In this document: positions 1 through 20,000 of the stretch, piece after piece
Position numbering within the stretch: position 1 is the stretch's first letter
How the letters are laid out: each line of letters opens with the position of its first letter
NCBI GenBank assembly: GCA_045837725.1
Contig: JBEWZL010000253.1
Coordinates: 234,808-254,807, forward strand
Origin: Vermamoeba vermiformis
Taxonomy: Eukaryota
Direction of reading: 5' to 3'
Length of the DNA: 20,000 nt
Program-made: the position numbers and the translations under genes
The notes under the pieces: generated by a model
The model's database searches: none
What the model saw: the letters and a program-made list of their open reading frames with translations, nothing else
Told to the model about the DNA's origin: nothing

Positions 1-167
1 TTGTACAACCGGCGGGCGAAATTACCTCGGAAAGTTTTTCGTATAAATTTCTGTACTATTGGAATTTCATCCTAGGATGAGTACTTACGTAATATCCCTG
101 CGAGTGTAGTTGCCTAAGACCGCCTTATCCGATTTTCGTGGTACCAATGCATAATAATATGACGCTG

Positions 168-1477
168 TTAATGAAACCACAAGTGATGTGCCCAGTCGTG
201 TTTGAACGAGTTCTCTAATTCACTGAATTGATGCACCCTGCTGCTCGTCGCGTTGAATAGCAACAGCGCCAGTCTGAAAGTGCTCTGATCGGACCAGCGA
301 TGCGTCACGAGTCCATTCATTGCCAAAATATAGTCTGCGTAGTGTTGATAGGCAGCAGATCTGAACCAGTTGACGCGACCCACTTGAAATGCACCGTGGA
401 ATACGGAATTGTTGAGTGCGCGGCGCTCAGCGGGTGTAATGTGCAGACAATCTAGGTAGTGCAGAGTCTCTTGCAGGGCCACGCACTGCTGAGGGTCATT
501 GCTCTCTGAGTAGACATTAATACTAGGAACGGACGTATAGCTGCATGACTTACGCGTAATGTAACCGTAGAGCAAGTTGTTGTCGTGCAGGTATTGGATC
601 GGATCTGGTTCAATTTCTTTGATCGGATACATGTCCGAGTCAATTGAAAGATAGTAGTCGAACTCTTTCATCAGCGGGTGGTCCCACAGGCCTAACAATA
701 GAAAGTTGTTAGTTGGAAGGCCAGTTGACCTAGTGTTACCTTTGATGCGCCAGTAGTTCATGAACACGTAGTTCATTGAATGCAACGAGTATTGCTGCAA
801 ATTTGACATGCACCGCACGTAGGCGTCAGGGTCTACCACGTGATTGGCAAAGAACTCTTGTTTGACACGTGTCACATCACTGAACACGACGTTTTGTTCG
901 ACAGTCGCGCGATTCAGCCAGTCAATGTCACTGCGCGAGACAGTCTCGTCGTAGAACACTATGACCGAGTAGTCGTGGCGGTGATTATAATAGCGCCATA
1001 TGTCCTGCAGGTGATAGTACAGCTCTTTCACATACGATCTAAACCACGGCGTGTTTTTTTCGTTGACGAGCAGATAGACAATCACTCCGCGAGGTTTCGA
1101 GTGCGCATTGGTCGATATGTTAGGTATAATAGCCTCGTATGGCGTTATTTTGCGCAGCTCGGTGCAGTTGGGTGGGACAATGACGGGGAGTTCGCGGATG
1201 TAGGCTAGATATCTCTGCCTTCGCACTTCTGATACCAAAGATTATTGCCACGATTTTTTTAGGTTTATTTTAAATTAAAGTGAAGATAAAAAATAAAGAT
1301 TTGAATTTTTTGGTGGATCTGACGCTGCCAAACGCACCTGCCAAGGGAAAAAATTTTAAAAAGTCAATTACCTCGATATTCTATTAATTTGGGGAAGCTG
1401 ACAATCCACAGTATTGTGGCAACTACACAAAAGCCTAATATTCCGTGCAGCACTCTTCTGCTGCGTGCAATCGCCAT
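168..1477 (-). CDS. Glycosyltransferase family 15 (KRE2/KTR-like alpha-1,2-mannosyltransferase), type II membrane protein, 4 exons
   Basis: ATG at 1477 gives MAIARSRRVLHGILGFCVVATILWIVSF (signal anchor). GT-AG intron 1371-1229 joins it in frame to the 168..1238 ORF. Two further 48-nt in-frame introns (739-692, 553-506) restore YWRIKGLWDHPLMKEFDYYLSIDSD. C-terminal WFRSAAYQHY..GLVTHRWSDQ matches GT15 motifs. Confidence 0.8.
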
Positions 1478-1648
1478 TCCTTTGCGAGTTAGCACAACTA
1501 TGATATTACGCTTAATACGCGACTGGGTCCTGATTGTGTTGCTCAAAAACGACTTAGAACAACGTTGCAAAAATAATGAGGCATTAGCGTGCTATCCGCC
1601 CAGCTGCACAACAATTAGTTAAACATATGTTATTTTTATTAACTTGAA

Positions 1649-4600
1649 ATGGACGTAAACAATAAAAAGCGTAAAGGAGAGGATCTGGAGCACGATCACC
1701 AAAAGAAGCAGCGAGTTAGTGAGAATACTAACGACTTTAATTGTAAGGCTAATTTTAAAAATCTACTAAATTCATTGTCTTATTTACAGCAATTTTGAAT
1801 GATAAATTATAGATCTGGAGTCGTTACCGCTTGAGATTCTTCTTGAGCTAGCAAAGGAAGTTGGCTCTTACTCGGTCGTACTCTTGTCCTTGACGTGCAA
1901 ACATTTCTACGACTCATTCTCTACCGACAACAAGTTCTGGTTCTCGTTGTTTTGCAATGAGCGCCTTGTCAACCGCACTGCTGTAGATCTCGACAACTCC
2001 TCGCTGCGAGAGGGTAATTGAATTTAGCTCATGGTCATTCTTTTGTTGATAATATTGTAGACTTGGAGGATTTGGAGGATGAAGACTATGTCTTTGACAG
2101 ATACGACGATGAATTGACTACTGACACGGCTCAAATACAACGCGAATTAATTTCAGACGATTATCGCCCAAAATATCTCAAAGGCAATGAGTTAATAGCT
2201 CAGGGACAGGAAGACAAGCCAATCAAATACGACGAGCAAATCAACTACAAAGAGTTGGCGGTCGATGAGTGGCTGAAGAGACAGCACTTTGAGCTCTGGA
2301 ACGACACTGCTTGTGCCTCACTGTACCAATCAACTTGCAATTGTCGTGCTGAAGAGACAGACCTCGTGTTGTACGACGACAATGGCAATGAGCTGTCAGT
2401 AGACTATTCGGACAATGAATTGGTAGTACTAGACGGACCAGCTGATAGCACCGTGGAATCACTGTCGGACGACGAGTCAGACGAGGATTCAGACCAGGAG
2501 ATGAGTGCTGTGAGCTGTGACAGTGACGCGAGTGAGGCTGATGAAGAGGTTGAGCCTGTGATGTTGACTGCAGAGCTGAGGGACAAAATTATCGCGTAAG
2601 ATAACGGTGATTATTGTTGTATCACATGATCTTGGTAATTGACACGGTACGAATAGGAGCGTAGCGGACAGTCCTCAGTTGAAGATATTCGTGCAAGTGC
2701 TCGATGCCGCAGTGCTCGGGCACATTCCTCCGTCGACGTGCCCTGACACGGAAAGACTCGCCGTAAGCAGAGTATATATATCTCTGTAACTTGGCTTTAC
2801 TGATGCCTTCCCTAGATAACTAAATTGTATCATAAAGTGGTGCACTTGGGCAATGTCGTCGAGGAAGTGATCGCTCAAATATCACGCGCTGTTAATTTGG
2901 ACGCACAAGCGTGTCACATGATGCTGTTTTGTGCCTTACAAAAGCTCTGCCTCACCGACTTGCTGTATTTGGATCAGGCGGTGAAAGCACGATTTCCGTA
3001 TTTTGCAAATGTTTTCTCAGGTCAGTAACAAGGCTAAGGTCGTTGTAACTAACTACTGACACCAACAACAGTGCATAATATTGAGCGCAGCGTGCCGGCG
3101 TCGTGGCATGATTTGGTGGCTTGCAATGAACCACATTGGGCATTCAGCTTTCACGCATCTATGGCCTCGAATGACGAGTTAGATTCGATGCCTGATTGGT
3201 TGTCGCGTGAGAGCTAGCTAACCAATCATATCGACCCCAAACTGACTGCTTCAGTGCGGCACTCCATTCATCGCCTCATGCGTTGCTGGGTATTAAATGC
3301 TACTCCAAGTGCTACCGGTCAGTATTCACCGTCGATTGTGAGCCTCTAACTCTTTCGCCAGAGCACGCCATCAGTGAACTAGTTGAATTTGTTCGAAGTA
3401 CTCTACAGAGTATTATTGAGCTGAAAGGCGCGTCAGATGCGCAATCAATTGAAGTTAGCGAGATTGACGTGTTGAAAGCAGTGTGCAGACATCCCAAAAC
3501 GGCAGACTTTGTCCAACCTCACACCATGTACTTGACGAGCAAACTGATGCAAGAGAGCATGGTGCAGTTGCGGTCTGACAGCGAGTGTTCGTACGCGAGC
3601 AGTTATTCCGATGCAAGTGAAGAGGAGGAGGATTTAAATCAGTTCGTGGAAGAGAATAAAACGAACATACTGCACGGCGGGCAATCACTGGCACTGGCCA
3701 ACAACGAAAACAAAGACGAGGACAGCATTGAAGAGGACTTGAATAATTACCAAGACCTAACCGAGCAAATCAAGGTAATTGAGCTGCGTGTGCACGCGCG
3801 AGTATTAACTAGTGTCACAGCGCAGCGTTCAGGGCGTGGAAGATGACACGAGCCCATTGTTGATGCGCACAGCAGTCGTGTACGGCCAAACTGACTTGAC
3901 CGCGGAACAACTCAATGACCTCAGTGACGAGGCATTCAGCGACAGCGACGAGCAAGTCGAGGAACAATTGATTGCGTGGTACGTCTGCACAGTGCTGCAT
4001 TTGAAGTAAATTAATCGACGAACCAGGCTGGCCGTTGACGATGACATTTACAACCCTGATTATGTGGAGAAAATGATTCACACCCTCAAACAAGACGCTG
4101 CGTACTATGCAGGCAATGGCGAGGCAGGTGATCGAGCAGAGGATGAGATGGGTGCAATCGACAGCAAGGTGCCAGATGATTTGCCTGAGTTGCGACAAGA
4201 CTTGTCAGAGGCCCATCGCGCTAAAATACTCGACGTGCGACGTAAGATTGTTTTGCAGAAAAGGAGTCGTTGTTCTAACTTCTTTATTTGCAGGAGAGAC
4301 CAATCGGCTGTTAAAAGCAGAAATTATGCGCGAACACAGCGAATTTTTGATGAAAAAGGTGGGATTATTCATTGTTCTTCGAACTAGTGACTGATTTCCT
4401 TGCCAGTACGATCGACTTTATGACAACTACATCGAGCACGGTGGCGTGCTAGATCCATTGCAAAGCAAGTCGTTGGAGATTAAATTCTTTTCAGATAACG
4501 ACAAGAACATCAAGCGCGCTGTCAATGAAGCAATCGAACTGATCGGTGAGTCGAGAACGAGTTCAGTTTTGATAGCTAATATTGACAGCACTGACAGGCA

Positions 4601-5318
4601 AAATTGAATCTTTGAAAACAATTAAAATTTACGACCACCACGACGCAAAGAATATTGAAGACGTGCCCGATGCTGTTCTCAACGAGCAATCTACGCCCAT
4701 CCAATCACTATTCGACGCTATTCAGAATAGCGCTAGCATCGATACGATCAAGCTTTACAGCTGTCATTTTCTAGACCTAGTGCCGCTGATTAAGTTGCTG
4801 TCGTGCAAGAAATTGGAAAGATTTCACTTCGTTTTTACCGATTCGTAAGTCACATCTGGCCCCAATCTTCTGGCTCTAACCTGCAATATGATTAGCTTTG
4901 AATTAGCCCCAGTCCAGCTCGCACCATTCTTGGACGAATTGAGCAAACATTCGTCGTTAAAAGAGTTGGCAATCGACTATCCAGTGGTCCGCAGAGCTAA
5001 CTTTCACATCCAAGAGGCACTGCTATCACTGCTGCCTTCACTTCAAGTTCTCAAATTGGTGTTGCCTTTCGGTTCAGCCGATCGTAAGTACCGTGCTGTA
5101 CAATTAAGCATTGATTAACTTGCTCATGCTCAGAGGCAACTCTCGAGCATTTAGAGACTCTGATGCCGAAGTGCAATTCATTGCAGAGAGTGGTACTGTG
5201 CTTCAATCGCTTTGACCTCTTTAAACAACCGACCGAATACTTCACACAAATGTGCCACAATATCACCGAGGCTGCGAAACCTGCTGCGGTGCTCTTCACG
5301 ATCAGTCTGAATTGTTGA
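1649..5318 (+). CDS. Large multi-exon F-box protein with acidic tracts and C-terminal LRR-like region
   Basis: ATG 1649 gives MDVNNKKRKGEDLEHDHQKKQR. After an intron comes LESLPLEILLELAKEVGSYSVVLLSLTCKHF..FW (F-box). ORF fragments at 2018, 2825, 3283, 3812, 4064, 4582 and 4888 are bounded by GT-AG introns. LRR-like segments include SLKTIKI, KLERFHF, SLKELAI, SLQVLKL and SLQRVVL. Last exon ends TGA 5316-5318. One junction near 3180-3220 is unresolved. Confidence 0.7.
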
Positions 5319-5392
5319 GGACAATAAAGGACTCCATCATTGTGATAAAATACTGGGAGCGTTTATCAATTAACTGTTACACAGTCTGGCAT

Positions 5393-6953
5393 CTAAACGG
5401 TGACGTAAGTGGACTCGTGAGCAATACCGCAAGTGTCATCGCCCATAGCCAAGAGGATGTAACCTTGAATACCCCAGTCGGTGTTCCAAGAGTTGCGCAC
5501 GATCCAGTAGGGAGTAGGGGCAGTGGTGTCGTAACCAACCAATTGCACGCAGTGGTCGAGGAAGTTGATCCAAGCGCACTCTTCCCAGTCCATAACTCCG
5601 CTTTGGTAGTCTTGCCAGTTAGCAGCATCGACGCACACACTACACGGAGAGTTAGAACTCGGTACGATCGCACAAAATAGGGTACAATTACCTCAAAGGA
5701 CCCTTGGTGACGAGGTTGGCTCTCAATTCGGACTCGCTGTACCAAGTCGTGGACTGTGAGGTCATTAGTCCAAGCACTTCGGAAAGTATATATCGACAAT
5801 CACTTACGTAAGCCCAGCTCTTGATCTTAGCGGCAATGCCAGACTTGTTGAAGGCGCACACACCGTCTTCACCAGTGTAGGGGTAGTACGCAGCGGATTC
5901 GAGACCACCAGCGCTGATGACTGAAGAGACAGTCAGTCAGGTTGCACACAAGTACTCATTGACTGTAGTACGTACCGTAGTCGTAGGCAGTAGGAGGCTC
6001 ACCACCTTCACAACCACCGTCAGAACCGTCGCAATCGACGATTTGTTGAGGAGCGAGGTTCAACTTGTCAGCGGTAGACTTGCCAGCCAAGATCCAAGCT
6101 GACTCGATGGTTTCGGTGGCACTGAAGGCCCAGCAACTGCGCACATTGATTCGTTAGTGCCAGCCCAATTGATGTAGCCAATAATATCTTAAGACAAGTT
6201 ACCTGCCGCATTGACCTTGATCCTTGACGGGAGTAACAGCACCACGGCTTCTCCTATGTAAAGTATAAGTTTCCACACTTAACAAAGGCCGTAAAATATT
6301 GCTGTGTTAACGGTAAATTACCAATCGAGCTTCTTAGGCTCAGCAGCAGCCAAGAGCTCAGCCTTGTTGGCCTTGATGGGGCTAGGAGTAGCAGGGATCT
6401 TGTTCTTCATCAAATAAAGTTCTCTGAACTCTTCAGGAGTGAGATCTGGTTGACACGTTAGTTTTACAGTCGATCTAGCAGCGAAGTCTTTGTTGATTCC
6501 GAGTTACGGATAACGATGGATTACCTGAGAACTTAGTAACGCCGTACTTGGCACCATTAGGGAATCGTCTGGTTCTTTCTTCAACGCGTTGAAGAGAAGC
6601 CTAAAAATAACAGTGTCAATAATTTGGATTTTAGAATCGTCAGTTAGTAAATATTTATGTGATTTATTTGTAAATAATAACAGCTATATATTTAATTTTA
6701 TTGTTACATACCTTGAAGTTGTTAAATCTGAGTTGAGCTTCTTCAGCGGTTTTGTAGTTCTTGTTGTAGGCCTTAGTGAACAATTGGAACTCGTCTAAAT
6801 AATTAATATGACATTAGTTTTATCGATAAACTCGCGTAATTGCAGTATCCACTTACTGAAAAGTTCGCTTTCAGATCGACCAGAGAATTGAGCGCTGGCC
6901 AAGCAGAGAACGGAGAGGGCGGCCAATAAGCCAATGACAACGGTGAACTTCAT
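5393..6953 (-). CDS. Papain-family (C1A) cysteine protease, pre-pro-enzyme (cathepsin L/F-like), multi-exon
   Basis: ATG 6953 gives signal peptide MKFTVVIGLLAALSVLCLASA, followed by an I29 prodomain (RFNNFK..YGVTKFSDLTPEEFR). Spliced active site VKDQGQCGSCWAFS; catalytic His in LDHCVQLVGY and Asn in YWIVRNSW; stop at 5393. Confidence 0.95.
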
Positions 6954-7350
6954 CGTTAAGTGTGTATTACTAACGCGAAGAAAGAATCAAATCAACAAAA
7001 AAGATTATTTTGTTTTTGACACTTCGTTTGACACTTGGACAGGACCAGCATGATTATCAAGCCCGAATTAATATTTAAATACGCAACTAAGTACATTTCT
7101 AATCAAGTCTTGTTTAATTGCAGCAACGTGATTCAAAACGCGATCCCACGAACATCTTTTTGTAGTTAATAGTGATGCTCGAGGCCTTGATATCGAGGTC
7201 ACAATATCAGCAAAATATGTCGTAGAAATTGGCAGAAATGTTGTAAAAATTTCTTAATTATTGAGCGAAAGACTTTTAAGCCGAGCGTCGTGCCCTTCTA
7301 ACCAGTTACATCTCTAATCTAACCATACTAGCACTTCAAATCAAACTTTC

Positions 7351-7843
7351 ATGTCCGCCTCTAAAGAAGCACCAACGCAAAACACTGAAACTCCGTACTC
7401 GGATACTGCAAAGGTCGAGTTGATCGAACCCACGAAGGATAAACCTACTAAGACGAAAGAGTTCAAGACTTCGACGTAAGCTCCTGATTGTTTGTTATTG
7501 TTGTTTGGGACTCTCGCTCGAATATTGACTCATAAAATTTGTAGCGACTTGCCTAGCAAGCCTAGCGATCAAATATACGGTGGAGCGCTAGAAAATGACC
7601 CCAGTAAGTATTTTCATTCGAGTGCAACGTAGTTTCTCGCAATTTTGAGATTTGCCACTGATTTACTTTTCGTTTCCAAATATAGATATGCCGGCTACAG
7701 ATCAATCAGCTTTCCCTGTCCCAACAACGAGCTACGAAGAAGTGCGACACCCTGAAGGTGAGGTAGAAGGCGTGCCGAAACTATTCAAAGGTCAAGCTTT
7801 GGACCAAGGCAGGGGTGAGGCCAAGAAGCAAAGTCAATCGTAA
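7351..7843 (+). CDS. Small (113 aa) hydrophilic, probably disordered protein of unknown function, 3 exons
   Basis: ATG 7351; introns 7476-7544 (GTAAGC..TAG) and 7604-7685 (GTAAGT..TAG) keep the frame to TAA 7843. AATAAA lies about 30 nt downstream. Confidence 0.7.
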
Positions 7844-8043
7844 AGAAGTTTCTCCGCCTTCTATTGTATCACGAATAAAGTGGTGACTTTGTTGTAGAAT
7901 TATTATTTATCTTCATATTACAAATACATTAATAGAAGTGCCACACGATAGTTTGTGGTTTTGGTGTGTGTGTTTTTTTTGTGGGTTTTAAAATTTTTTT
8001 TTTTGGTTTTTTGGTTTTCCGGCTCACCAGAAACTACGCGAGA

Positions 8044-9056
8044 TTAGTAGTCTGTTTGTTTCGACATGACAGTCAACTTACATTCGTATTGCGCACGAAT
8101 AGCAAACATTCCGTCAGGCGACAATACCATGTGCACAGCACCCTCTTCGTTGAACTCGAAGAGTTTAGTGCGCAAGGACTCGCCCGAAATAGTGCACAGC
8201 TCGTACAACGTAGGTCTAATGAGCACGAGATCATTGGATGCTGCACAATATCGTTATGAGCACGCGATGAATGTAAAACAAATTTGACACGTACCAGCCC
8301 ACGCAATGTCGTGCAATTGACCGCTGAGATTATTGCGCGTGAATGAGCCAATCAGCGACGGCGTGTAGTGCTCATCGAAGGCGTACACGACCACTTTGTC
8401 ACTGCCCTCAGGAGTGTGCAGTACAAATGCAATTTGACCGAGGCCTAGTGCGATCATTAGTACGGTAGAAATGATGCAACAATGAGTGACTTACTTGAAC
8501 TCGCAACGTGCGTCACGTCCAAATCAAAGTCCACAGCGCACAACTTGCGTCCTGTTTCGGTGCAGGTGATGGTGCATCGTCGATAATTGCGACTAATACG
8601 CGCTAGTTTGTGATCGTCCCATTTCAACAGTTGGACTGGCGTGCGTAACACAGCACGTTCTCGGCCCCAGCGGGGTGGCGGTATTGGTTCGTCAGCAGGC
8701 TGCAGAGACATTATTTTGACGCGGTAACCAAATGCTTCTTCGACCTGCGCTGCTCGTTTGATTGCCCGCACGGATTTGGCTCTGTTCGTCGATTGCAGTA
8801 AATCGTCGAATCCAACAGGGAATATTCTCTTGACGTAGGATTGCAAGCGAGAGTCGACTATGGACTTCAGTTTTGAACAAGTAGTCGCGAGTATCAATAA
8901 ACCTCGAGCACCAACGAAGTTCAACAGATGGAGAAGTGGATCGTCCGGCAAATCTGTCAATGGCGGCTCACTCTGTATACTGGCGCCATTTTTTTGTTTT
9001 TTGTTAGCTTCGAGATCAAGATCGAGATCGGCGCTTGCTTTTCTTTTCTTGTCCAT
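8044..9056 (-). CDS. F-box protein with bipartite NLS and beta-rich C-terminus, 3 exons
   Basis: MDKKRK..NKKQK, then LTDLPDDPLLHLLNFVGARGLLILATTCSKL (F-box). Introns 8494-8445 and 8294-8241 join ORFs 8457..9056, 8254..8457 and 8044..8226 in frame. Confidence 0.75.
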
Positions 9057-9337
9057 GGCGAATTTCTTCGTGCTTATTTAATAATTACGGCTAAATTAAC
9101 GGCGCTTGCGCAGATAGATATTTATGCTGCAAAGCACGTGTCAATCCTATTTTCACGATTTTATTCCTCGAAGGCCGCTAAAATTTACTAAGAGTTAATG
9201 ATTAAAGCCAGGCTCATCTTCTTATTTTAAATGGACCATTTAATTACGTAAGGTTCTAAAGTAGGCTTGTTGTGCTGATGCGCTATTCGTTGGAAATAAA
9301 AATCTTGTTTCGTTCGTAAGAGAAAAAGATCACCACG

Positions 9338-10121
9338 ATGAAACACCTGACCTCGTTCGTAGTATTACAAACAATTGTGATATTTTATTTTGCAATTACA
9401 GCTCACTCCGAGGCACTACCTGACGGATTTGTTCATCTGTCTGCGAGTTAATCCGACGATAATTCAAGAAATGCGCTATTATTCAGAGCACAATTTTGTA
9501 GGTCATAAAATTAATGGCTACGCAGCGCCTGAATGCATATTGACAGTTTCAGCAGCGAAGAATCTTAGCTTCGTGCAACAAGAGCTTCTTTCATTAGATC
9601 CACCCCTTAGTATTAAAGTATATGACTGTTATAGACCTCAGCGTGCAGTTGATGAATTTTACAGCTGGTCGCTCGATCCACAGCTCACGCAGATGCAGCT
9701 CGAATTTTATCCAGGCCTGAACAAGAGCACACTATTCGACCTCGGCTATATCGCACGCAAATCAGGACACAGTCGCGGCTCCACCATCGATTTGACCCTC
9801 GTGCCTTACCCTCCACCAGCACAGCCCGCCTACAAACCTGGCATGACACTCACGCCCTGCACCGCACCCTACGGGGTCCGATTTGACGACAACAGCATTG
9901 ACATGGGCACTGGCTTCGACTGTTTCAACGAGTTAGCGCACACCAGCAATCCGAATGTGCACGGCGTACAGCTTGAAAATCGTTTGCTGCTGAAGCGCAT
10001 CATGAACAAACACTTCTTCAACAATTATGCGCTGGAGTGGTGGCACTACACATTGATCGACGAGCCATTTCCCGACACTTATTTTGACTTTGAAATCACG
10101 TCAGTTTTATTCGCTTATTAA
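9338..10121 (+). CDS. ddpX: D-alanyl-D-alanine dipeptidase (VanX/DdpX, peptidase M15D) with signal peptide; apparent +1 frameshift at ~9440-9447
   Basis: Motifs VYDCYRPQRAV, SGHSRGSTIDLT (Zn ligands), DMGTGFDCF and EWWHY. Upstream frame from ATG 9338 encodes a signal peptide plus ALPDGFVHL, the typical family N-terminus, then stops at 9449-9451. Confidence 0.9.
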
Positions 10122-10218
10122 GTACATGAACCAGTATTAATTATTTACCCATACAGCCCTTCTTTGAGCGAAGAGTCAACAACGTACTGGTAAGTGAAAT
10201 CGCGTTGAGATTATGAAA

Positions 10219-11833
10219 TTACAACGGCCAATTTTGACGCTTCAAGCACATATCCCAAAACATGTATTCCATTTTCATTGCAGTTTTGAAATAATCGAGC
10301 ATGCGTTCTCTTTCTCCTGGAGGTAGCGTTACTGACACTTTGTCCATGAATGCGCGCAGTTTGGAGACCGAGGAGGTGAATTCATTGCCGCAATAATACT
10401 CGATCCATGTTGCGTAGGTGTCTTTAGCTTGATTGTCGTGCAAATAATGACCAATCTTATTATACAGCAAGAAGCAGGCCAACACTGATGCGAGACCAAC
10501 ATAGTACGGCTGTTCTCTCGTGACAGTGGTCAAGAACGACAAATAAAGTTGGTTGTTGGGCGCGAGTTGTGTGTTGAGAAAACTGTCCGTAATCTTCTTG
10601 TAACTGCTCGAGAGGTGCGTAATCATGTCTTTTTCATTCGATCCCGCTTCTAATATCTCGCTCAGTTCTTTTCTGAGCGATGCAGGAGTTTTTGATACGA
10701 TCACTGACAGCCGGTCGTCGAAAGTGTTCAAGAACTGCCGGTCTTGTTCGAGAAAGAACTGAAAGCTCTCTTTGGGCAGAGTGCCGTCTAGAATGCCCTG
10801 CACGAAACCATGAGCTCTGATCGTTTCGTACAGGTGCAGCGAGTGGGTCCAAAGGTACTCGGTGACTGGTTCAGGATGTCTCAGTAGTGGCCGACACGAG
10901 GTGTGCCAGAAGTGATTTAGAGGACCGTGGCCGTGTCCGACATTCAGTTCATCAGCTCGTTGAATCGCTCCTGCCACGTATTCATGCGCTTGTTTCACCG
11001 CATCCACAATGCTCATGCCCTAGGTTGTGCGTAAGCCTTGATTGAATTTTAGTCGCAGATACTTACTTGTGCGACAAACGCAGCTATTGCAGAGCTGAAA
11101 GTGCATCCACTGCCGTGCGTGTTTTTGGATTCGACTTTTGGGCTTGTAAACTCATGAAACGTGACCCCATCGTATAGTACGTCAGTTAGTGTTGTATGTC
11201 CTTCTAAATGACCTCCTTTAATCTAATTTCCATTAGATGAAATGCATGGCGAAGGGCGTTCCTACCAACACGTTGCGGGATCCAAAATCTTTTTGTATCT
11301 TCGTTGCTGCTTGCTTCATGGTTGGAATATCAGTGATTTTAATGTTCGTGATGAACTCAGCTTCTGGAATGTTCGGAGTTAATAGCGTGACGTATTTAAG
11401 GTTGGTTTTCAGCTCGATCTAAAAAAAGTATTCGAATTAATTGCAATTTAAAGCTGCAGCGCATATTTACAATGGAGCTCGGTTCCAGCAAGATAGACCC
11501 TCCTTTGGCAGTCATGACTGGATCCAAAACGATGGGAATATTTGTATCCTTGATCTGATCGAATACCGCCGAAATAGTTTCAGATGTGTGCAGCATTCCA
11601 ATCTTGATGCAATCGGTCCTTATGTCGTCAATAACTACTTTAATTTGCTCGCGAATATGTTGTGGAGGAATGTCAAATACCGAAGATACACCAAGCGTAT
11701 TTTGCGCAGTAATTGCAGTAATGACGGATGTGGCAAACACGCCCAGCGCAGAGATTGTCTTAATATCCGCTTGAATACCAGCTCCACCGCCAGAATCAGA
11801 TCCAGCAATCGTTAAACAGGTAAAGCAAGACAT
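10219..11833 (-). CDS. THI20: Bifunctional HMP/HMP-P kinase (ThiD) - thiaminase II/TenA fusion (THI20-like), 490 aa, 4 exons
   Basis: LTIAGSDSGGGAGIQADIKT, KIGML, VLDPVM, LLTPNIPEAE, IKGGH, NTHGSGCTFSSAIA, VGHGHGPLNHF, then TenA domain (FLEQDRQFL, LACFLLY, WIEYY, MEYMFWD). Introns 11470-11419, 11265-11223 and 11066-11020. Confidence 0.95.
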
Positions 11834-11995
11834 TTTGCAAAATGTGAGAGAGGATTTCTCGAATTACTTTTGCTGCAATTTATTGTTAAATAGTATTTCG
11901 AATGAGTTCAGTCTGAACTCACTGCACGGAAAATTTCATTGACAACGTGACAAGTTCTGCAACAAATTTTCTCAATACCTTTCGTCAGATCGAGG
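11834..11995. promoter_or_regulatory. 162-bp bidirectional promoter region with central perfect inverted repeat TGAGTTCAG-T-CTGAACTCA (11903-11921)
   Basis: Lies between two divergent ATGs. The palindrome centre (11912) is within 3 bp of the intergenic midpoint. Confidence 0.6.
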
Positions 11996-13544
11996 ATGCT
12001 ACCACTTGCAAAATGCTTATCAAAAAGATTAGGAAATTATGCAAAAAGAAGTTACAGCACTCACTCCAAGTATGGTGTATATTTGATTTTTGAAGACAAA
12101 ATTGCGGATGTGCCGCCTAAAATTGCCATCAATCAAGCCGTAGCAGGAAGTGCGACAATGGTTCAAATACGCGAGAAAAAAAAATCGACAAGCGAATTTA
12201 TCAAAGAAGCAAGAGAAATCAAAGCTCTGCTACGTGGCAGCAATGTGCCGTTGATCATAAATGACCGGGTTGATGTGGCCTTGGCATGTGATGCGGACGG
12301 CGTGCATGTTGGACAAACGGACATGGAGGTCAAAGATGCGCGAAGAATATTAGGCCCGAATAAGATCGTTGGCTGCACCGTCAGCACACCTTATCAAGCC
12401 AAGCTGGCGCTGTTTCAAGGAGCAGACTATCTGGTACGTCGCTGATAGCACTGTTTGCTGACTCAGCAACTCATATTCATATTAGGGCACTGACGCTATA
12501 TTTCCAACCGCAACGAAGCCCGACAGCAAGCCACTCGGCCTCGCAGCGTTCAAGGATATCTGCGCCTCTACTTCTTTGCCTGTTGTGGCTATTGGCAGTG
12601 TTAATCGAAACAACGCGCAATCGTGTCTCGATGCTGGTGCTGCTGGACTTGCAGCGTGTGCCAGTATTTTGGATTCGAGAGTGAATGGTGGTTCGATCAC
12701 AGAGGCTTGCAAAGAATTGCATCGGCTGGTGGACCTCTCGCAGCCAAAGTACTCGGACGAGCTTGCACGTGTGGCAGCGGAGGTGATTAGCGCGGTGAGA
12801 ATGAAGCATCCACTGATCGTGCACATCACTAATACTGTCACGATCAACGACGTTGCAAATGTCACTTTGCTGTGTGGTGCTTCGCCGGTCATGGCACAAG
12901 AGAACAATGAAATGGTCGAACTAGCCGACGCACTGGTACTCAATATGGGCACGCTGGACAACAATCAAATCGATGTTATGATCAGCTGTGGCCGCGTAGC
13001 CAACAAGCGAGGAATTCCCGTTGTGTTTGACCCTGTTGGTGCTGGTGCTACACCGTATCGAACAGCAGCAGCAAAGCGCATATTGGACAGCATTCATGTC
13101 GATGTTTTGCGCGGAAACGCCTCTGAGATAGCAGCACTTGCAGATTTACCTGCGAGCACACGTGGGGTTGATTCAGGAATTGTACAGAACAAACAAGCAG
13201 CACTCAAAGCTCTTGCTTCAACAGATCGAATAGTTATTATGACTGGCAAACACGACTTGCTCAGTGATGGACAGGTAGTCTATGAAGTCCACAATAATAG
13301 TGCTTGGCTTCAAACTGTTACTGGCACTGGCTGCATGCTCACAGCTGTTCTTGGTGCTTTTTCAACTGTTGGTCAATACTCAAGATTGAACACTTCTGCT
13401 GCTGCATTATCCTATTTTGCAGCAGCTGCAGAGAGAGCTGAATCTTGCAAACCAAATGGTCCTGCAAGCTTCAAGCAACTCTTTTTTGATGCTTTGGCTG
13501 AGGGAGGATCAGACTTTAAAATATTGTGTTCAAACCTCAAATAA
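11996..13544 (+). CDS. THI6: Bifunctional thiamine-phosphate synthase (ThiE) - hydroxyethylthiazole kinase (ThiM) fusion (THI6-like), 498 aa, 2 exons
   Basis: ThiE motifs VQIREK, LIINDRVDVALA, DGVHVGQTD, GADYL|GTDAIFPTATKPD, PVVAIG. ThiM motifs PLIVHITNTVT, GASPVMA, LVLNMGTL, VFDPVGAGATPYR, RGNASEI, VTGTGCML. Intron 12434-12485. Confidence 0.95.
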
Positions 13545-14289
13545 ATTTGTTTTAAAACCTTTTTGTGTCTGTTGCACACTGTCATTCTCAGCTACAACAA
13601 GGATTTTGATATTATCTGCAATTGGATAATAAAAACTTGATGCCATGCTCCTTCCACTTTTTCTCTTTTCTGAGTTAAAGCCAAGGTCAGGGTAACATCA
13701 CAGAATGGGTAGACATAAATGACCTTCATATCAGAAGTGCTTTAGATCTTATAAGCTAGTAGTCATCAGTGCAATGGTTTGATCTGCTCTTGGCCCACTT
13801 GGTACTGTACAACCAACTGTACTCTTCAGGTCCTGTCTCAATTATGGCCTCATAAGGTTCTCTAGTGTTCTGAACTCAATTTCTGGATTCCACATCATCT
13901 GTTCTTTGCAAATAAAACACATAGTTTACACCAAACTTTGAATCTCAAAAAAGAAAACAACATTTATTTCAATTTCCACCACATAAGAGCTGAAAAGTAA
14001 TCAGAGTTACAACAAAAGTCCTAGCTGGGTATCAATGCTTTCTCACTGAGTTGCCACAAGATATGGCAAGGTCCACGAGTCTCAGTCCTGAAGAAATTCA
14101 ATTTTTCGAAGAAATGTTCGGAAACTGTAATAATTCATACAACTAAATTAAATAAATAGTACGTTAAAAACAAACAGAGCATACTAGAGAAAAAACAAAG
14201 TTTATGAAAAAGAATTTTGCATATGAAAAAGATGTATTTATTGTAAAACAAAACGTGCTACAGGCAAAAAGTTTTACAAGTCAAATGCC

Positions 14290-15246
14290 CTACTTGGCAT
14301 TAGATTTGGACTTCTTGGTGAAGTTTGTAGGTGACGAAGGTTCATCACGTTTGCGCTTTTGGAAGTTGCCGGGGTTTCATCCATGATGCCAGGCACATAA
14401 GGAGTCTCAGGCAAATCCTCATCCACGGCCATCTTAGCAGGAGTGTCAGGCAGTCCCAGTGGCTCATCATCTTCATCACCTTCTTGCACTTTGTTTGTAA
14501 CAATCTCAAACAAAGTGTTTTGAAGGGCAGCGGCATCTTCTTGACTGGAGAAGCGTGAGGAAATGAACCTTGAAACATGCTGGCATGCCACCTCCTTGTT
14601 GTCGGTAAGCATGAAACCAAGGTAGGTGGCTGTCATGTTGACGCAAGTGCTCAGTCTCCGACTCCGTCATTTTTACGTCGTCAACTGTAGCAGCAAGAAT
14701 GTAGCAAGGCCATTCCGTAACACCCCTATTGCTGTTTTAGTATTGTGTTAAAAAACAACACCATTATTAACTTACATTTCCTTGAATATCTCGTATCGAT
14801 GGTTGCCGCCAAGAATTCGGTACTCGGGTTGCTTGCTTTTCTTCTTCGTTTTTTCGTCGGGCGGCAGCAGTTGAACAAGAAATGGCTCCGTACGATTTAA
14901 ACCATTCATGAAGTCACCAGCTCCTTGCGCAATAATGTTGTTCTTAATGGTGGCTTTTCCTTCTTCGGTAACAGTGCGGTACGTTCCTATCGAAAATTAT
15001 TAGAGCAACTTGAGAACAACAGTGAACGCGCCGCGCGTCCACAAATTTTTGAGTTTTTTATCAACGCGCCGCGCGTTCAAAAAAGGTAAAAATATTGTTT
15101 AAAAATACTACAACACATGTGCATAATAATCAGCTCTTTGGGCTGAACGCGCGGCGCGTTTATGATTTTTAAAATTTACTTTTCTTTACCTCGCACAGTC
15201 ATTTGAGCCAACGGGACTGAAGTAGGATTGCCTTCATTTGTGAGCC
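14290..15246 (-). pseudogene. Disrupted spliced ParB/Sulfiredoxin-domain gene with acidic C-terminus and NLS-like tail
   Basis: Splicing introns 15189-14987 and 14775-14726 gives TSVPLAQMTVRGTYRTVTEEGKATIKNNIIAQG..EPFLVQLL..EYRILGGNHRYEIFKEMGVTEWPCYIL, the ParB-N pattern. Frame breaks at ~14640-14660 and in an A-run at ~14357-14360; the corrected tail reads KRKRDEPSSPTNFTKKSKSNAK*. 5' start not located. Confidence 0.7.
15026..15160. repeat. Three GC-rich near-palindromes AACGCGC(C/G)GCGCGTT inside the ParB-like gene intron
   Basis: Copies at 15026-15038, 15063-15079 and 15144-15160; the last is the exact reverse complement of the second. Confidence 0.85.
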
Positions 15247-16180
15247 TTTTAGGGTTAGGGGAGCACTGGGGGGCGCCAAATGACTGGAAAACCGGAAAAT
15301 TTGGCGCCCCGAATTTAATGGCAAAAAATGGAACGAAATTGAACACTACTGTCTTGAACAAACAGTGTTCAATTTCGCGTTAATGCGAAACAATAGCTCA
15401 AACAATGAGCTAATATGGCAATATTAATTTTTTTGTTAATACGAGAAGGTAAGCGATAAATAGCGCGGGGATCCGAGGGAGCCAACGGGCCCCTGGATCT
15501 TTAAATTTTGATCCGGACCTCTCAATTAATTTTTATTTATTATTTTGGATTCAGACCGCCGAGAAACAACGGGCGAAATCAATGCCAAAATTCTCGGTGG
15601 CAGAGAAAGCAAGAAATTGTCGCGCCGATCCGTTGACTCAGAGTGACGGATCAACGAAGATTCATAAGAAAAGAACATCAAGAACATGATTAAAGGTACG
15701 TAATAATGATAAATATAGCAGCAATTTAAATATTGATTGTGTTCGAGGTCGGATTTAAACCTCGATCGAATTTCAAATCAGCGAGATTAACGAGATTATC
15801 GTTACTCGCGTTAAATTATGGAATTATTATCTTTGTTATTGTTATTTAAATCATTTTAAACAAGTTCTGCGGCGATCACCAAGTCAGTCAACGATCGCAC
15901 GCGTCATTTAAATTTAAATATAGACAGATCGATCACATTGGTCAATTTATTAATTTATTCTTGTTATTTATACGTTTTTTTAGCTTATAGCAACGCGCCA
16001 CGGCTTTAAGAGCCGTTTCAGCGCGAGTTATTTTGAATTTCCAAAATCGCACGCGCCAAGTTTTGACACTATTTTACAATTAATATACCTTTGGGGTTAA
16101 GGTTAAAGGTTGAGGGGTGAAGAGTCCCTGATTGTATGACGTAAATTAAATGAGTTAGTAGAAGTTTATACTCAGTCAAA

Positions 16181-16591
16181 GCATCCGAATTTCGGATGGT
16201 CAAAAACCAGCTTTGAATAACTGATAGCTAGATAGTTAGAGTCATCCGATGTTCGGACGGTTATAACCAGCTATGTACTTCTAATAGCCCATATTCTCCA
16301 ACAAGGGCATCCGATGTTCGGATGGTCTAACAAGTAGCTACAAAAACCTAATAGCTCATTTTTGAATGCATAGGCATCCGAAGTTCGGATGGTCTAAAAG
16401 TAGCTACGAAAACCTATTAGCTCACTTTTGAATGCATAGGCATCCGAAGTTCGGATGGTCTAAAAGTAGCTACGAAAACCTGATATCTCATTTTTGAACG
16501 TATAGGCATCCGAACTTCGGATGGTCTATAAAGTTGCCTGAAAAAGTTAAAGTCTCATTAGAAGGCACAGGCATCCGAAATTCGGATGGTC
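16181..16591. repeat. Array A: 7 units of 61-67 bp, each with the palindromic core GCATCCGA-NNN-TCGGATGGT
   Basis: Cores at ~16181, 16242, 16307, 16374, 16440, 16506 and 16571. Inter-core sequences are related to each other (AGCTA..TAGCTCA..TTTTGAATGCATAG) and diverge toward the array edges. Confidence 0.95.
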
Positions 16592-16806
16592 CAGTTATTT
16601 ACATATTAGTAGTTAAATGTACTTTATTTATTACAAAACAAAGTTAATACAAAAATCAATTTACTTTTTACCTGCTTTAAGGTAATTTAAGGAGTCTTCT
16701 CTCTCCTTCTTAGCTTTGCGGCGCTTGTAATTTATACTATATAGGAGGCTACTACAATTTAGGGTTATGCGTTCTACGGGCTGATAACGCCCTTGCCTCT
16801 TATCTA

Positions 16807-17114
16807 GGGTGTAGTTTTGAGGACTGCACCCTTTCAAACCAGACTGGGGGTGTAGTCCTCGAAACTACGCCCTTGCGAACCAGAACGGGGGCGTAGTCCT
16901 CGAAACTACGCCCTTGCGAACCAGAACGGGGGCGTAGTCCTCGAAACTACGCCCTTGCGAACCAGAATGGGGGCATAGTCCTCAAAACTACGCCCTTGCA
17001 AACCAGAACGGGGGCGTAGTCCTCAAAACTATGCCCTTGCGAACCAGAACGGGGGCGTAGTCCTTGAAACTACGCCCTCACAAGCAAGAACAGGCTTGTA
17101 GTTTGCAAACTACA
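16807..17114. repeat. Array B: 41-bp tandem repeat GGGGGCGTAGTCCTCGAAACTACGCCCTTGCGAACCAGAAC (9-bp stem hairpin), 6 copies plus flanking variants
   Basis: Units start at 16846, 16887, 16928, 16969, 17010 and 17051. There is a loop-inverted copy at 16807 and a terminal perfect palindrome TGTAGTTTGCAAACTACA at 17097-17114. Confidence 0.95.
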
Positions 17115-17220
17115 TGTGCAAAAAATATATCTTATTTACCATTATATACCCTATAGGGGTAGGGGTGGGTAGGTGGCGGGTTGCATATTCAATTTTCATT
17201 CACCTCAGCATCAAACAGGA

Positions 17221-17291
17221 TGCACGCATGCGCATCAGACAGAGTGTACGATTATCGTGCACACATGCGCATCAGACAGGGTGTACGATTA
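17221..17291. repeat. Two-copy ~36-bp direct repeat TGCACRCATGCGCATCAGACAGRGTGTACGATTA
   Basis: Copies at ~17221 and ~17257. Confidence 0.85.
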
Positions 17292-17671
17292 AATATGATA
17301 TTAGCAGTGTTAGCCCCCGCATAGAAAGGAGAATGAAAGTGAAGATGAAGTATTAAAGTGATGTTCAAAATAGAGTGAGATTTCACTCTGCATTCTCATG
17401 AAGAATGATGATTGGGGTGCATAGAATAGAATGATGATTATATATATAGTTAGGCTTAGCTAATTTAAGGCTTATAGGCCTAAAGCCTGGAAAATGTCAA
17501 ATTTTTGCATAAATGTTATTTATTTTTGAATATACAATAATGCCTAAAATCAGTACTATCTTTGTCTTCCCAATTTTGAATCACAAACGTTGTTTTCCCA
17601 TCCACTTGCCTTGGCAGGTTTACAATGAAGACAGAGCCTAAAGTTAACGAACTTAGTTTCATCGGTAACTA

Positions 17672-18699
17672 TTTTGAATATGCATACTTACAAAATGTCT
17701 ATTCATTTGTATGCATGTCCAACCAGTAGAGTGCAGAATTCTCGATCAACCGTAGTCCAAGGACTACGGTCAAATGCAGAATTCTTGACTAACCGTAGTC
17801 CGAGGACTACGCTCAAACAAAGAATTCTTGAAGACCTGATGTGTACCAGCCTAATCATGAAGGGTCAGAATATTTGAATATGCAAAATATTAAAATGTAT
17901 ATTCATTTATACCTGTGGGCCAGTCATATACGGCGAGTGGTGGGAGGTTGCAGCGACTGAATCTAACTCCAACTGAATATCTCTAAAGAATGTCAATATT
18001 TTGAATATGCAAAAAAAAATAGTGTCTATGCATTGTCATAGGGCACTACATTACTTAACAATTCCTCGAGTGTAGTCCAAGGACTACGGTCAAATACAGA
18101 ATTCTCAACTAACTGTAGTCCAAGGACTACAGTCAAATACAGAATTCCTGACTGAGCGTAGTCCAAGGACTACGGTCAAATGCAGAATTCTCGACTAACC
18201 GTAGTCCAAGGACTACGGTCAAATACAGAATTCTTGACATACCTGAAAACGGGCAAAGCAGCTTAAATTGTCTCTATGACCTGTAGAAGGGTGCATAAGT
18301 AATTTTGAATATACATTAATTAAAAGTGTATATTCAAAAGTTTGTAAAGATAACGTGACCGTAGACCAAGGACTACGGTCAAATACAGAATTCCCAACTG
18401 AGCGTAGTCCAAGGACTACGGTCAAATCAAGAATTCTCGACTAACCGTAGTCCAAGGACTACGCTCAAATGCAGAATTCCTGACAACTGGTCAGGGTTAT
18501 ACCATATACTTTGAGCGTAGTCCAAGGACTACGGTCAAATGCAGAATTCTCAACTAACCGTAGTCCAAGGACTACGCTCAAATACAGAATTCATGACATA
18601 CTTGAACAGGGGGAAACTGCCCAAAGGCATAACAGGTGACCTGAGAAAGGGAAGGTAAGTTATTTTGCATATACATTAATCTAATTTGTCTATTCAAAA
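17672..18699. repeat. Module D: dispersed AT-rich inverted repeat TTTTGAATATRCA-N~11-TGTMTATTCAAAA interleaved with array C blocks
   Basis: Copies at ~17672, 17873, 17999, 18303 (perfect 13-bp stem) and 18663, plus an inverted copy at ~19767-19800. Confidence 0.8.
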
Positions 18700-18832
18700 G
18701 TTTGAAAAGATGATGAAACAACCGTAGTCCAAGGACTACGCTCAAATTCAGAATTCTCAACTGAGTGTAGTCCAAGGACTACGGTCAAATGCAGAATTCC
18801 TGACTGAGCGTAGTCCAAGGACTACGGTCAAA
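17732..18832. repeat. Array C: 43-bp unit CCGTAGTCCAAGGACTACGGTCAAATGCAGAATTCTCGACTAA, 14 hairpin copies in 5 blocks (2,4,3,2,3)
   Basis: Hairpin cores at 17751, 17794; 18071, 18114, 18157, 18200; 18360, 18403, 18446; 18516, 18559; 18723, 18766, 18809. Confidence 0.95.
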
Positions 18833-20000
18833 GATTCACACCTATAACCCTGAAGACTTACATAACCCTAACAGTGCAGAATAAGTCCAAACCATCCAAT
18901 ACAGCCATCAGATATTACTTGTATGCTATAGTAAGGTAGATTAGCATCAGAGTGACAAAATAAAGAATCGAATTTGAATATTTAAAAAAAAATAATAACT
19001 ATTTATTTTTGTGGGTCCGCATTTGATTACTTACTGCTGCAATGAAAGGAAGCCATGCAGATACAGGTGTTCTTATATATTCTATAGTGGTGTTGTTGGC
19101 AAGTTGAATGTAACAGAAAATGAACAAAAAAATCTTTTTTTGGTCAAGCACGTGATCGATGCTCGTTAAAATCTGACCAATGCACGCACTGCCAACCTCC
19201 TAATACACTTCTCAAGGGGCACATCAGTAGTGTGCTACTATTCAAATATGTAAGAGGTCAAGGAGAGGGCCCATTGGTGAGGATCCGATGGTCAGCCGAT
19301 GTTGGATCGAGATCAGGATTTGCCAATTTCAGTCTGGTGGCTTCCAGTAAAGTAAGTAATCCAAGAATATTAATATAAATATTAACTACACTATGTGGTT
19401 AAACTGGTGGCATTATCTGCTACTATATAATAAAATAAATATTTAATAAAATCAAATCTAGCCGTTACCAAAAACTTTATAACTTTTTGTTAGCAGTTCG
19501 AGCCAGTAAGCATCAATTCATAGTGACAATAATATGAGTATTATGGTAAAATTAATGTCATACTTGTAGGATAAATAGTAAGTGAGATTTTGCCGATCCA
19601 GAGGCTCGTGCACGATCCAGGATCAATCAGTGTGGAGCTTCAGTGACCACTGGTAAGTTTGAAAACACACTCAAATAATTAACTACAGTGCTCTAATACT
19701 AGTTGTCAGGTCAACAGAAGGCAGCAAGAGCTGGTTAAGCAGATCCAGACAAGTCGAAGCTGTATTTTTTGAATAGACAAATAAATATTTTGAATATTCA
19801 TTTTTGTACAAACAAATTTAGTGTCTGTATGAGTGATAGTTGGTGGATATATCTTTCTACATTGGTCGCAGGTGGTTTTTGTTGAAGTTTGTGGGATTGA
19901 CATGCCCCCATGTTGAAAATGTTTGATGTCCTGGATCGCAGAATGCTGAGGTTCTCTCTGCCTTTGATAACCCTGCAAAGGACCATTGCTCTTAGTGTTC

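Follow-up and report, generated by a model that had tools for sequence, protein, structure and literature searches.

A stretch of 20,000 nucleotides (nt) of the Vermamoeba vermiformis genome (assembly GCA_045837725.1, contig JBEWZL010000253.1, positions 234,808 to 254,807 of the forward strand; hereafter the window, whose numbering is used throughout) contains a broken, spliced gene on its minus strand. The gene encodes an N-terminal domain that resembles ParB and sulfiredoxin (Srx), and three arrays of palindromic sites lie 1–3.6 kilobases (kb) upstream of it. We favour, with moderate confidence, the reading that two separate things adjoin here, a low-copy ParB/Srx-like nuclear gene and a set of dyad-rich satellite and dispersed repeats; gene and arrays are most likely independent of each other. 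The direct observations behind it are the structure of the gene and its breakage, the counts of palindromic sites, the locus of a relative that is free of arrays, and a contrast in sequencing depth between gene and repeats.

The gene, its relatives and its predicted fold

The reading frame is divided by two introns on the minus strand, as the sequence-only reading of this DNA had noted in joining exons across two canonical introns into the peptide that it quoted. The putative exon 1 (15190–15202), which is modelled from the sequence only, comprises the ATG at 15202–15200 and 10 further nt, with a GT donor at 15189–15188; a short open reading frame (ORF) upstream of it begins at 15236. Intron 1 (14987–15189, 203 nt) and intron 2 (14726–14775, 50 nt, phase 2) both have GT..AG borders. 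Exon 2 (14776–14986) encodes the first half of the ParB/Srx-like domain and ends in the GGNHR strand, with its GxxR motif, and the start of a helix. The exon 3 remnant (14644–14725; GVTEWPC...EHL) runs up to a deletion junction at 14644/14645. The C-terminal remnant (14290–14643) lies in two other frames and consists of an acidic stretch, then a basic tail resembling a nuclear localization signal (NLS), with a TAG stop at 14292–14290. When exons 1–3 are spliced, the first stop is reached at 14506, after 147 residues. The first 100 of these, to ...EHL, hold all the quoted motifs (..YRTV.., IKNNI, PFLV and YRILGGNHRYEIFKEMGVTEWPC), and the residues past the EHL junction are out-of-frame read-through.

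Few relatives of the gene were found. A phmmer search with exon 2 as the query against 1.84 billion representative proteins returned five proteins at E <= 0.001, three of them exon-sized fragments with 60% (P0001), 78% (P0002) and 54% (P0003) identity. The clusters to which these relatives belong comprise one or two members apiece, found on one to three contigs each. The other two proteins, P0004 and P0005, are repetitive, 2,100–2,300 amino acids long and matched over 24–25 residues, and were set aside. P0003 corresponds to two metagenome loci, L001 and L002, the 2 that were confirmed among 177 pattern matches; they are the same locus seen twice. The gene in L001 is intact: five exons join into one open frame, and the spliced protein of 407 residues ends in an acidic stretch. 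A word-based protein search revealed no longer forms of exon 2, and with L001 exon 4 as the query it returned that exon alone. No relatives were found in viral contigs or in prokaryote genomes, and tblastn against phages gave a single chance match (E = 3).

A splice acceptor just before G[TH]YR is common to the window, P0001, P0002 and P0003, all four of which diverge fully ahead of it. The position and phase of intron 2 are identical in the window and L001, the two members with a readable next exon. These common intron positions fit an old gene family resident in eukaryotic cells. The introns and the NLS-like tail had been taken by the sequence-only reading as marks of a eukaryote-adapted element, a view that the shared positions speak against.

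The surroundings of the relative offer an observation of their own. At L001 8567–9430 (minus strand) and 11227–12018 (plus strand), the ParB-like gene stands head-to-head with a gene encoding coiled-coil and retropepsin-like parts (gag-asp_proteas, E = 6e-4), and a reverse-transcriptase zinc-finger fragment (zf-RVT, E = 1.6e-5) follows. Judged by these matches, the surroundings of L001 are likewise rich in mobile-element debris.

The window copy is broken, as had been recognized from the sequence. BLASTP aligns exon 3 of the window with exon 3 of L001 over GVTEWPC...EHL (E = 1e-5), and the alignment ends at the L codon 14646–14644; the remaining protein below 14645 is in another frame (ORF 14274–14666). 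A second comparison is provided by X1, the DNA run of the organism that best matches the stretch (0.73 of its words); metagenome runs sharing a small part of it were left aside. Many single sites separate X1 from the window, 8 of them within 559 base pairs (bp) of a thiamine gene, implying that X1 represents another strain or haplotype. One X1 contig matches 14948–14644 and is then unlike the window for 137 letters, and a second matches to 14645 from the opposite side and is then unlike it for 255 letters. The divergence of both contigs at 14644/14645 indicates that X1 has at least 255 nt extra there, and hence that the window allele carries a deletion whose length is not a multiple of three. 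Relative to L001, about 190 residues are absent from the window allele.

The basic KRKR-type tail lies in a third frame and would be in frame with the acidic stretch only if one T were added after 14356. X1 has that additional T (depth 571.9 of 571.9). The C-terminal remnant of the window matches the C-terminus of L001 weakly (E = 0.16). The internal deletion takes out the middle of the protein and changes its frame, and a one-letter difference in a run of T cuts off the tail. The window allele is a null allele, and X1 may hold an intact one.

The N-terminal domain probably has a ParB/Srx-type (ParB-CTPase) fold. A local ParB_N profile, built from bacterial-genome regions with PF02195 and PF20188, was compared with the peptides after splicing. 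That of the window reaches 15.0 bits, with residues 54–96 on profile positions 52–93, which span the Y-x-I-x-G-x-R-R strand, the next helix and the V-P-x-x-V strand; YRILGGNHRYEIFKEMGVTEWPCYIL falls on the helix-strand segment with Y-x-I-x-G-x-R-R. The N-terminal 110 residues score 16.5 bits, a value reached by none of 2000 shuffles (1621 scored, the highest at 6.6). An hhalign comparison of four family members with 12 ParB_N sequences gave a score of 29.3 (P = 1.2e-4) over 59 columns in the ParB order. Its 61 controls stayed lower: the reversed template scored 14.6, the best of 30 column-shuffled templates 16.1 and the best of 30 column-shuffled queries 16.2.

Other comparisons point in the same direction. 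In a protein atlas the best match of exon 2 reaches 0.93 (neighbours 0.92–0.93); the 30 matches comprise 9 from DUF6551, 6 from the ParB_N set and 15 without a family, and the ten best family-bearing matches all belong to one clan. PHROG 723, a ParB-like partition protein, touches the same residues (E = 0.28). The GxxR loop reads GNHR in both the window and P0001. The order of strands and helices in a low-confidence AlphaFold2 model of exon 2 fits the fold.

Several results weigh against this assignment. The AlphaFold2 model, made from 4 sequences, has a mean predicted local distance difference test value of 57.8, and a Foldseek search of the PDB with it gave no match at E <= 0.001. Pfam, NCBIfam and PADLOC recognized no ParB family in exons taken singly from the window, P0001, P0003 and L001, and searches of the PDB by sequence and by profile returned chance rows alone, with E of 1.1 or more. 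The 15–16.5 bits of the local profile would lie below the Pfam cut-off of 26.3 bits, were the scales comparable, and the spliced L001 peptide misses the profile with a score of 1.1. The hhalign probability is 56%, and a comparison with a single DUF6551 sequence covers 14 columns at P = 0.096. In the atlas match, 149 of 256 features are in common, a number usual for distant relatives or chance; true family members typically have 170. P0003/L001 has GNHC, without the R of GxxR, so the loop is not invariant in the family. The ParB/Srx N-domain of the sequence-only reading is thus upheld in part, by the local profile, hhalign and the atlas neighbours; the curated libraries gave no match, and the L001 peptide misses the profile.

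A sulfiredoxin enzyme was tried as an identification and rejected. The active-site motif of sulfiredoxin is FGGCHR. The three family sequences that extend over this site read GGNHR or GGNHC, with Asn where sulfiredoxin has its catalytic Cys; sulfiredoxin activity is therefore unlikely. For the later part of the protein, no family of helix-turn-helix (HTH) or other DNA-binding domains was found in L001 exons 3–6, and the atlas gave no usable match for L001 exon 4.

The palindrome arrays and their relation to the gene

Palindromes become denser along the window, with 0.94 per kb over 1–13900, 4.1 over 13900–16080 and 9.25 over 16080–19000. The 27 palindromic sites in three tandem arrays reported by the sequence-only reading were recovered by counting (7 + 6 + 14), and none of 200 shuffles reaches the site count of any array. 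Array A (16182–16588, plus strand) consists of 7 sites of CATCCGAAnTTCGGATG with a 66-bp period. Array B (16806–17116, plus strand) has six good copies (16848–17077) and two degenerate flanking copies of the 25-mer GGGCGTAGTCCTCGAAACTACGCCC with a 41-bp period. Array C (17751–18826, plus strand) has 14 sites of CGTAGTCCAAGGACTACG in 43-bp units that form five clusters, and the unit also contains the palindrome AGAATTCT. The clusters sit in higher-order units of 300–360 bp bearing TTTTGAATATRCA hairpins, six of which occur at 17665–19007. Arrays B and C have the core CGTAGTCC in common. Between them, at 17221–17291, lie two 37-bp direct repeats with 94% matches that are unrelated to either array.

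Further dyads and motifs lie closer to the gene. A fourth palindrome family, GAACGCGCSGCGCGTTC, is found within intron 1 at 15025–15039, 15063–15077 and 15146–15160 (3 against 0.03 expected; no shuffle of 200 reaches 3). A hairpin-dense, non-tandem stretch of 856 bp (15225–16080) upstream of the gene holds at least ten different local inverted repeats and is in part multi-copy in X1; as DNA it folds with z = -7.37, and none of 20 shuffles folds as well. A perfect telomere-like TTAGGG dimer, TTAGGGTTAGGG, lies at 15249–15260 (plus strand), 47–58 nt upstream of the ATG, and four degenerate copies are located at 16091, 16759, 17153 and 18860 (the last on the minus strand), near array boundaries. 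Screening for RNA genes gave sub-threshold look-alikes of microRNA hairpins alone in Rfam, the highest at 35.8 bits where the gathering score is 66, and a transfer RNA scan found none. The palindrome motifs had 0 matches in viral contigs, and blastn of 15000–18900 against plasmids gave no match.

Depth in X1 differs sharply between the gene and the repeats. It is 355–480 in the gene bins (14403–15203) and 104–544 in the thiamine genes, values that look single-copy. Over 15204–19999, leaving aside 17340–17606, it ranges from 1,767 to 20,233, and the repeats thus have 5–50 times the depth of the gene: about 2,650–2,715 at 15204–15737, 20,233 in the array B bin and 1,767–2,686 in the bins of 18942–19999. 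The segment 17340–17606, which contains no tandem array, has a depth of 8,698. The high depth of such non-tandem parts indicates dispersed repeat copies.

The contigs of X1 bear on the relation of the two as well. At 16077–16081 the repeat is entered from three or more other flanks, including the left flank of this same locus at 13902, and loose ends at 16077/16079 place the repeat beside other flanks in at least four X1 contigs. One contig joins 13902 directly to 16081 at a depth of 258, with 2 filler letters and a variant at 13872 at the same depth of 258. It skips a segment of 2178 bp (13903–16080) that contains the whole gene and the hairpin-rich DNA upstream of it, which implies that the arrays are present there without the gene. 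This suggests a 2.2-kb presence/absence difference that removes the whole gene.

The sequence-only reading had combined gene and arrays into a ParB/parS-like module of a mobile element, with arrays expected beside intact paralogs. The L001/L002 locus has no tandem array near its intact gene, and the palindrome density of L001, 0.9 per kb, equals the background. The array-free locus, the contrast in depth and the joint from 13902 to 16081 all tell against the module, and neither an element enzyme nor terminal inverted repeats were found. The ends of the segment at 13903 and 16080 score 14 as inverted repeats, against up to 28 for shuffles. No transposase, integrase or Rep family was identified in the 9 ORFs of the repeat region that were tried, no target duplication was seen, and there is no ParA-like ORF in 13500–20000.

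Some considerations count against treating gene and arrays as separate. The comparative evidence comes from one independent related locus. Depth in X1 is not the same as copy number. Of 1088 contigs, 350 fit two places, so that tandem arrays inflate their own depth; the depth of array C could derive mostly from the window locus itself. The joint from 13902 to 16081 is a single contig with 29 letters on its shorter side. In its layout array C equals sopC of plasmid F, with an inverted repeat in every one of its direct repeats of 43 bp. A single gene acting in trans on many arrays could also fit the depth data.

On the favoured reading, the gene would be a low-copy nuclear member of a very small eukaryotic family. 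Its GGNHR loop suggests a protein that probably binds a nucleotide, and the intact form, with its acidic stretch and basic NLS-like tail, probably acts in the nucleus. Arrays A–C, the hairpin-rich stretch and the TTTTGAATATRCA hairpins would form a mosaic of tandem and dispersed repeats present in many places of the genome, probably amplified through unequal exchange or slippage, with arrays B and C derived from a common unit with the CGTAGTCC core. If the fold holds, the gene would stand among the few non-sulfiredoxin ParB-fold families in eukaryotes, with old introns and an almost complete absence from databases. A family represented by three exon fragments in 1.84 billion representatives would then widen the fold's known range modestly.

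An unlikely alternative, the best surviving of those weighed, is that the repeat mosaic from about 16080 rightward, and perhaps 15204–16080 too, is made of one or more non-autonomous transposable elements with internal or subterminal hairpin arrays (Helitron/Helentron-like, foldback-like, or clusters of miniature inverted-repeat transposable elements), with the gene as a neighbour or moved along. The sharp boundary at 16077–16081, abutting at least three different flanks in X1, is what such an element would show, as are the multi-copy state of non-tandem parts (17340–17606), the hairpin density of the region and the 2178-bp presence/absence difference with its 2 filler letters. Against this, the ends of that difference lack terminal inverted repeats and a visible target duplication, and the 9 ORFs contain no remnant of a Rep/helicase, transposase or integrase. 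A short start motif common to 16073–16097 and 17135–17161 scores 23, inside the shuffle range of up to 28, and the element ends are not definable from this copy alone.

The TTAGGG-like motifs invite a second alternative, an old subtelomere-like mosaic in which telomere-associated tandem blocks are divided by short degenerate telomere repeats; we regard it as improbable. Five such dimers occur within 15249–18871, near block boundaries, where 0.67 would be expected and none of 200 shuffles has as many, and a mosaic of repeat families with structural polymorphism would suit a chromosome end. Only one motif is perfect, however, and it has just two units; from its position ahead of the ATG it is equally possible as a promoter element, and housekeeping genes lie directly to the left. 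Either a promoter element or a relic left by the healing of a chromosome end could account for the dimers.

The module itself can be restated in a broader form. A ParB-fold protein would load onto the arrays of palindromes, whether in cis or in trans, and would serve a selfish element or an episome, now chromosomal, in partition, in silencing or in the manner of a eukaryotic centromere. We consider this very unlikely. The ParB-like fold with its GxxR loop, the basic NLS-like tail, the arrays 1–3.6 kb upstream and the fourth palindrome family within the gene's own intron all agree with it. The 41- and 43-bp periods correspond to about four helical turns, which counts in its favour as well. It also draws on the sopC-like 43-bp layout (PMC3177203). 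The relative's locus lacks arrays, however, the repeats far exceed the gene in X1 depth, and the contig that joins 13902 to 16081 leaves the gene out. The later exons of the relative gave no HTH or other DNA-binding domain, and neither a ParA-like partner nor a replication protein nor element ends came to light in the repeat region and at the ends of the skipped segment. The three or four unrelated palindrome sequences would require several binding specificities, and no likeness to plasmid DNA or viral contigs was seen.

Also very unlikely is a eukaryotic nuclear ParB-fold nucleoside triphosphate switch, encoded by one or few genes, that would bind dispersed palindrome arrays in trans and spread or bridge as ParB does at parS or sopC, serving as a centromere-like, tethering or silencing system for selfish repeats, with the sopC-like layout of array C reflecting functional convergence or ancestry. 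Dyad-rich satellites are a more economical reading than ParB-type binding in trans. A eukaryotic module of the ParB/parS type would, if true, be of great importance for chromosome and episome biology; the evidence points away from it.

The flanking genes

Positions 1–13,544 of the window carry ordinary eukaryotic genes with short GT-AG introns, and from about 13,900 to the window end the DNA is richer in A and T and contains many repeats. The genes of this left flank encode a GT15-like glycosyltransferase, a papain-type protease, an F-box protein, a D-Ala-D-Ala dipeptidase (M15), ThiD/TenA and a thiamine-phosphate synthase/thiazole kinase pair. At 9381–13544, the D-Ala-D-Ala dipeptidase gene (Peptidase_M15) adjoins two thiamine genes in head-to-head orientation, with ThiD/TenA encoded by the minus and ThiE/ThiM by the plus strand. 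The M15 and thiamine enzymes are of bacterial type, in a eukaryote whose other genes are almost without relatives in databases, and so may be old transfers; a thiazole-kinase query gave no match in prokaryote genomes. The GT15-like ORF (168–1241, minus strand) encodes 357 amino acids, and its sole database protein at E <= 1e-20 is a fragment of 208 amino acids with 95% identity. The finding of one such relative only implies that the source lineage is very poorly sampled.

RNA-sequencing runs that bear the species label of the DNA run match the thiamine gene at 12801–13334 partly and with many differences; their source is apparently a strain or species that has clearly diverged. Three runs with this label gave 8, 5 and 1 reads on 8 kb that included this control gene. 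All the reads were partial, with diverged loose ends, and are therefore uninformative on the splicing or expression of the ParB/Srx-like gene. At the other end of the window, two mutually similar short open stretches (19200–19660, plus strand) each end in a GTAAGT-type donor and match no family; a gene or repeat extending past the window may have its exons here.

Comparison with known systems

The nearest known structure is the ParB-CTPase fold, the PF02195 clan that includes DUF6551 (PF20188) and sulfiredoxin. A recent survey of the ParB fold, a preprint, reports binding of cytidine, adenosine or guanosine triphosphate (CTP, ATP or GTP) by the fold, divergent members included, and of CTP or ATP by phage DUF6551 fusions, and names sulfiredoxin as its commonest eukaryotic member (bioRxiv 10.1101/2025.10.10.680097). 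The window protein has the same succession of a helix, a PxxV strand, a Y-x-I-x-G-x-x-R strand-loop, a helix and a V-P-x-x-V strand, the same GxxR loop (here GNHR), and neighbours from DUF6551 and ParB_N in the atlas. It differs in that its family falls under every curated threshold and has one arginine in place of the ERR patch, or none in L001 (GNHC). The search for an ENLQR-type box, an HTH domain, a dimerisation domain and a ParA partner gave none of them, and the window gene has spliceosomal introns and an acidic-plus-basic tail. Canonical ParABS systems differ likewise, in that neither an HTH after the N-domain nor a ParA partner was found in L001 exons 3–6 and the window ORFs of 13500–20000.

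The sopC site of plasmid F consists of 12 direct repeats of 43 bp, and SopB, a protein of the ParB family, binds the 16-bp inverted repeat that each of them contains (PMC3177203). Set beside that description, array C is alike in its direct 43-bp repeats, each with an inverted repeat, beside a ParB-like gene. The window differs in having no similarity to plasmid sequence, no SopA/ParA gene and three or four palindrome families. Its repeats are multi-copy in the genome and its gene is not, and the relative's locus is free of arrays.

The oriP sites in Epstein–Barr virus (EBV) are tandem and palindromic, and EBNA1, which binds them, is not known to be a ParB-fold protein. The family of repeats of EBV oriP, a site cluster bound by EBNA1, acts as an episome partition element in the eukaryotic nucleus (PMC2654434). 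The likeness lies in a cluster of sites bound, in the case of EBNA1, by one protein, and the difference in the window's lack of detected viral genes or viral similarity.

Dyad symmetries are described as a common property of satellites in two papers (PMC5889037, PMC13081366). The window arrays depart from such satellites, known as non-B-form DNA at centromeres, in being short (0.3–1.1 kb) and in combining several unrelated families that abut beside genes. Their arms measure 8–13 bp, compared with dyads under 10 bp in PMC5889037, and nothing found here marks them as centromeric. Like dyad-rich satellite DNA, the window repeats are built of tandem units of tens of bp with short dyads, arranged in higher-order units of 300–360 bp.

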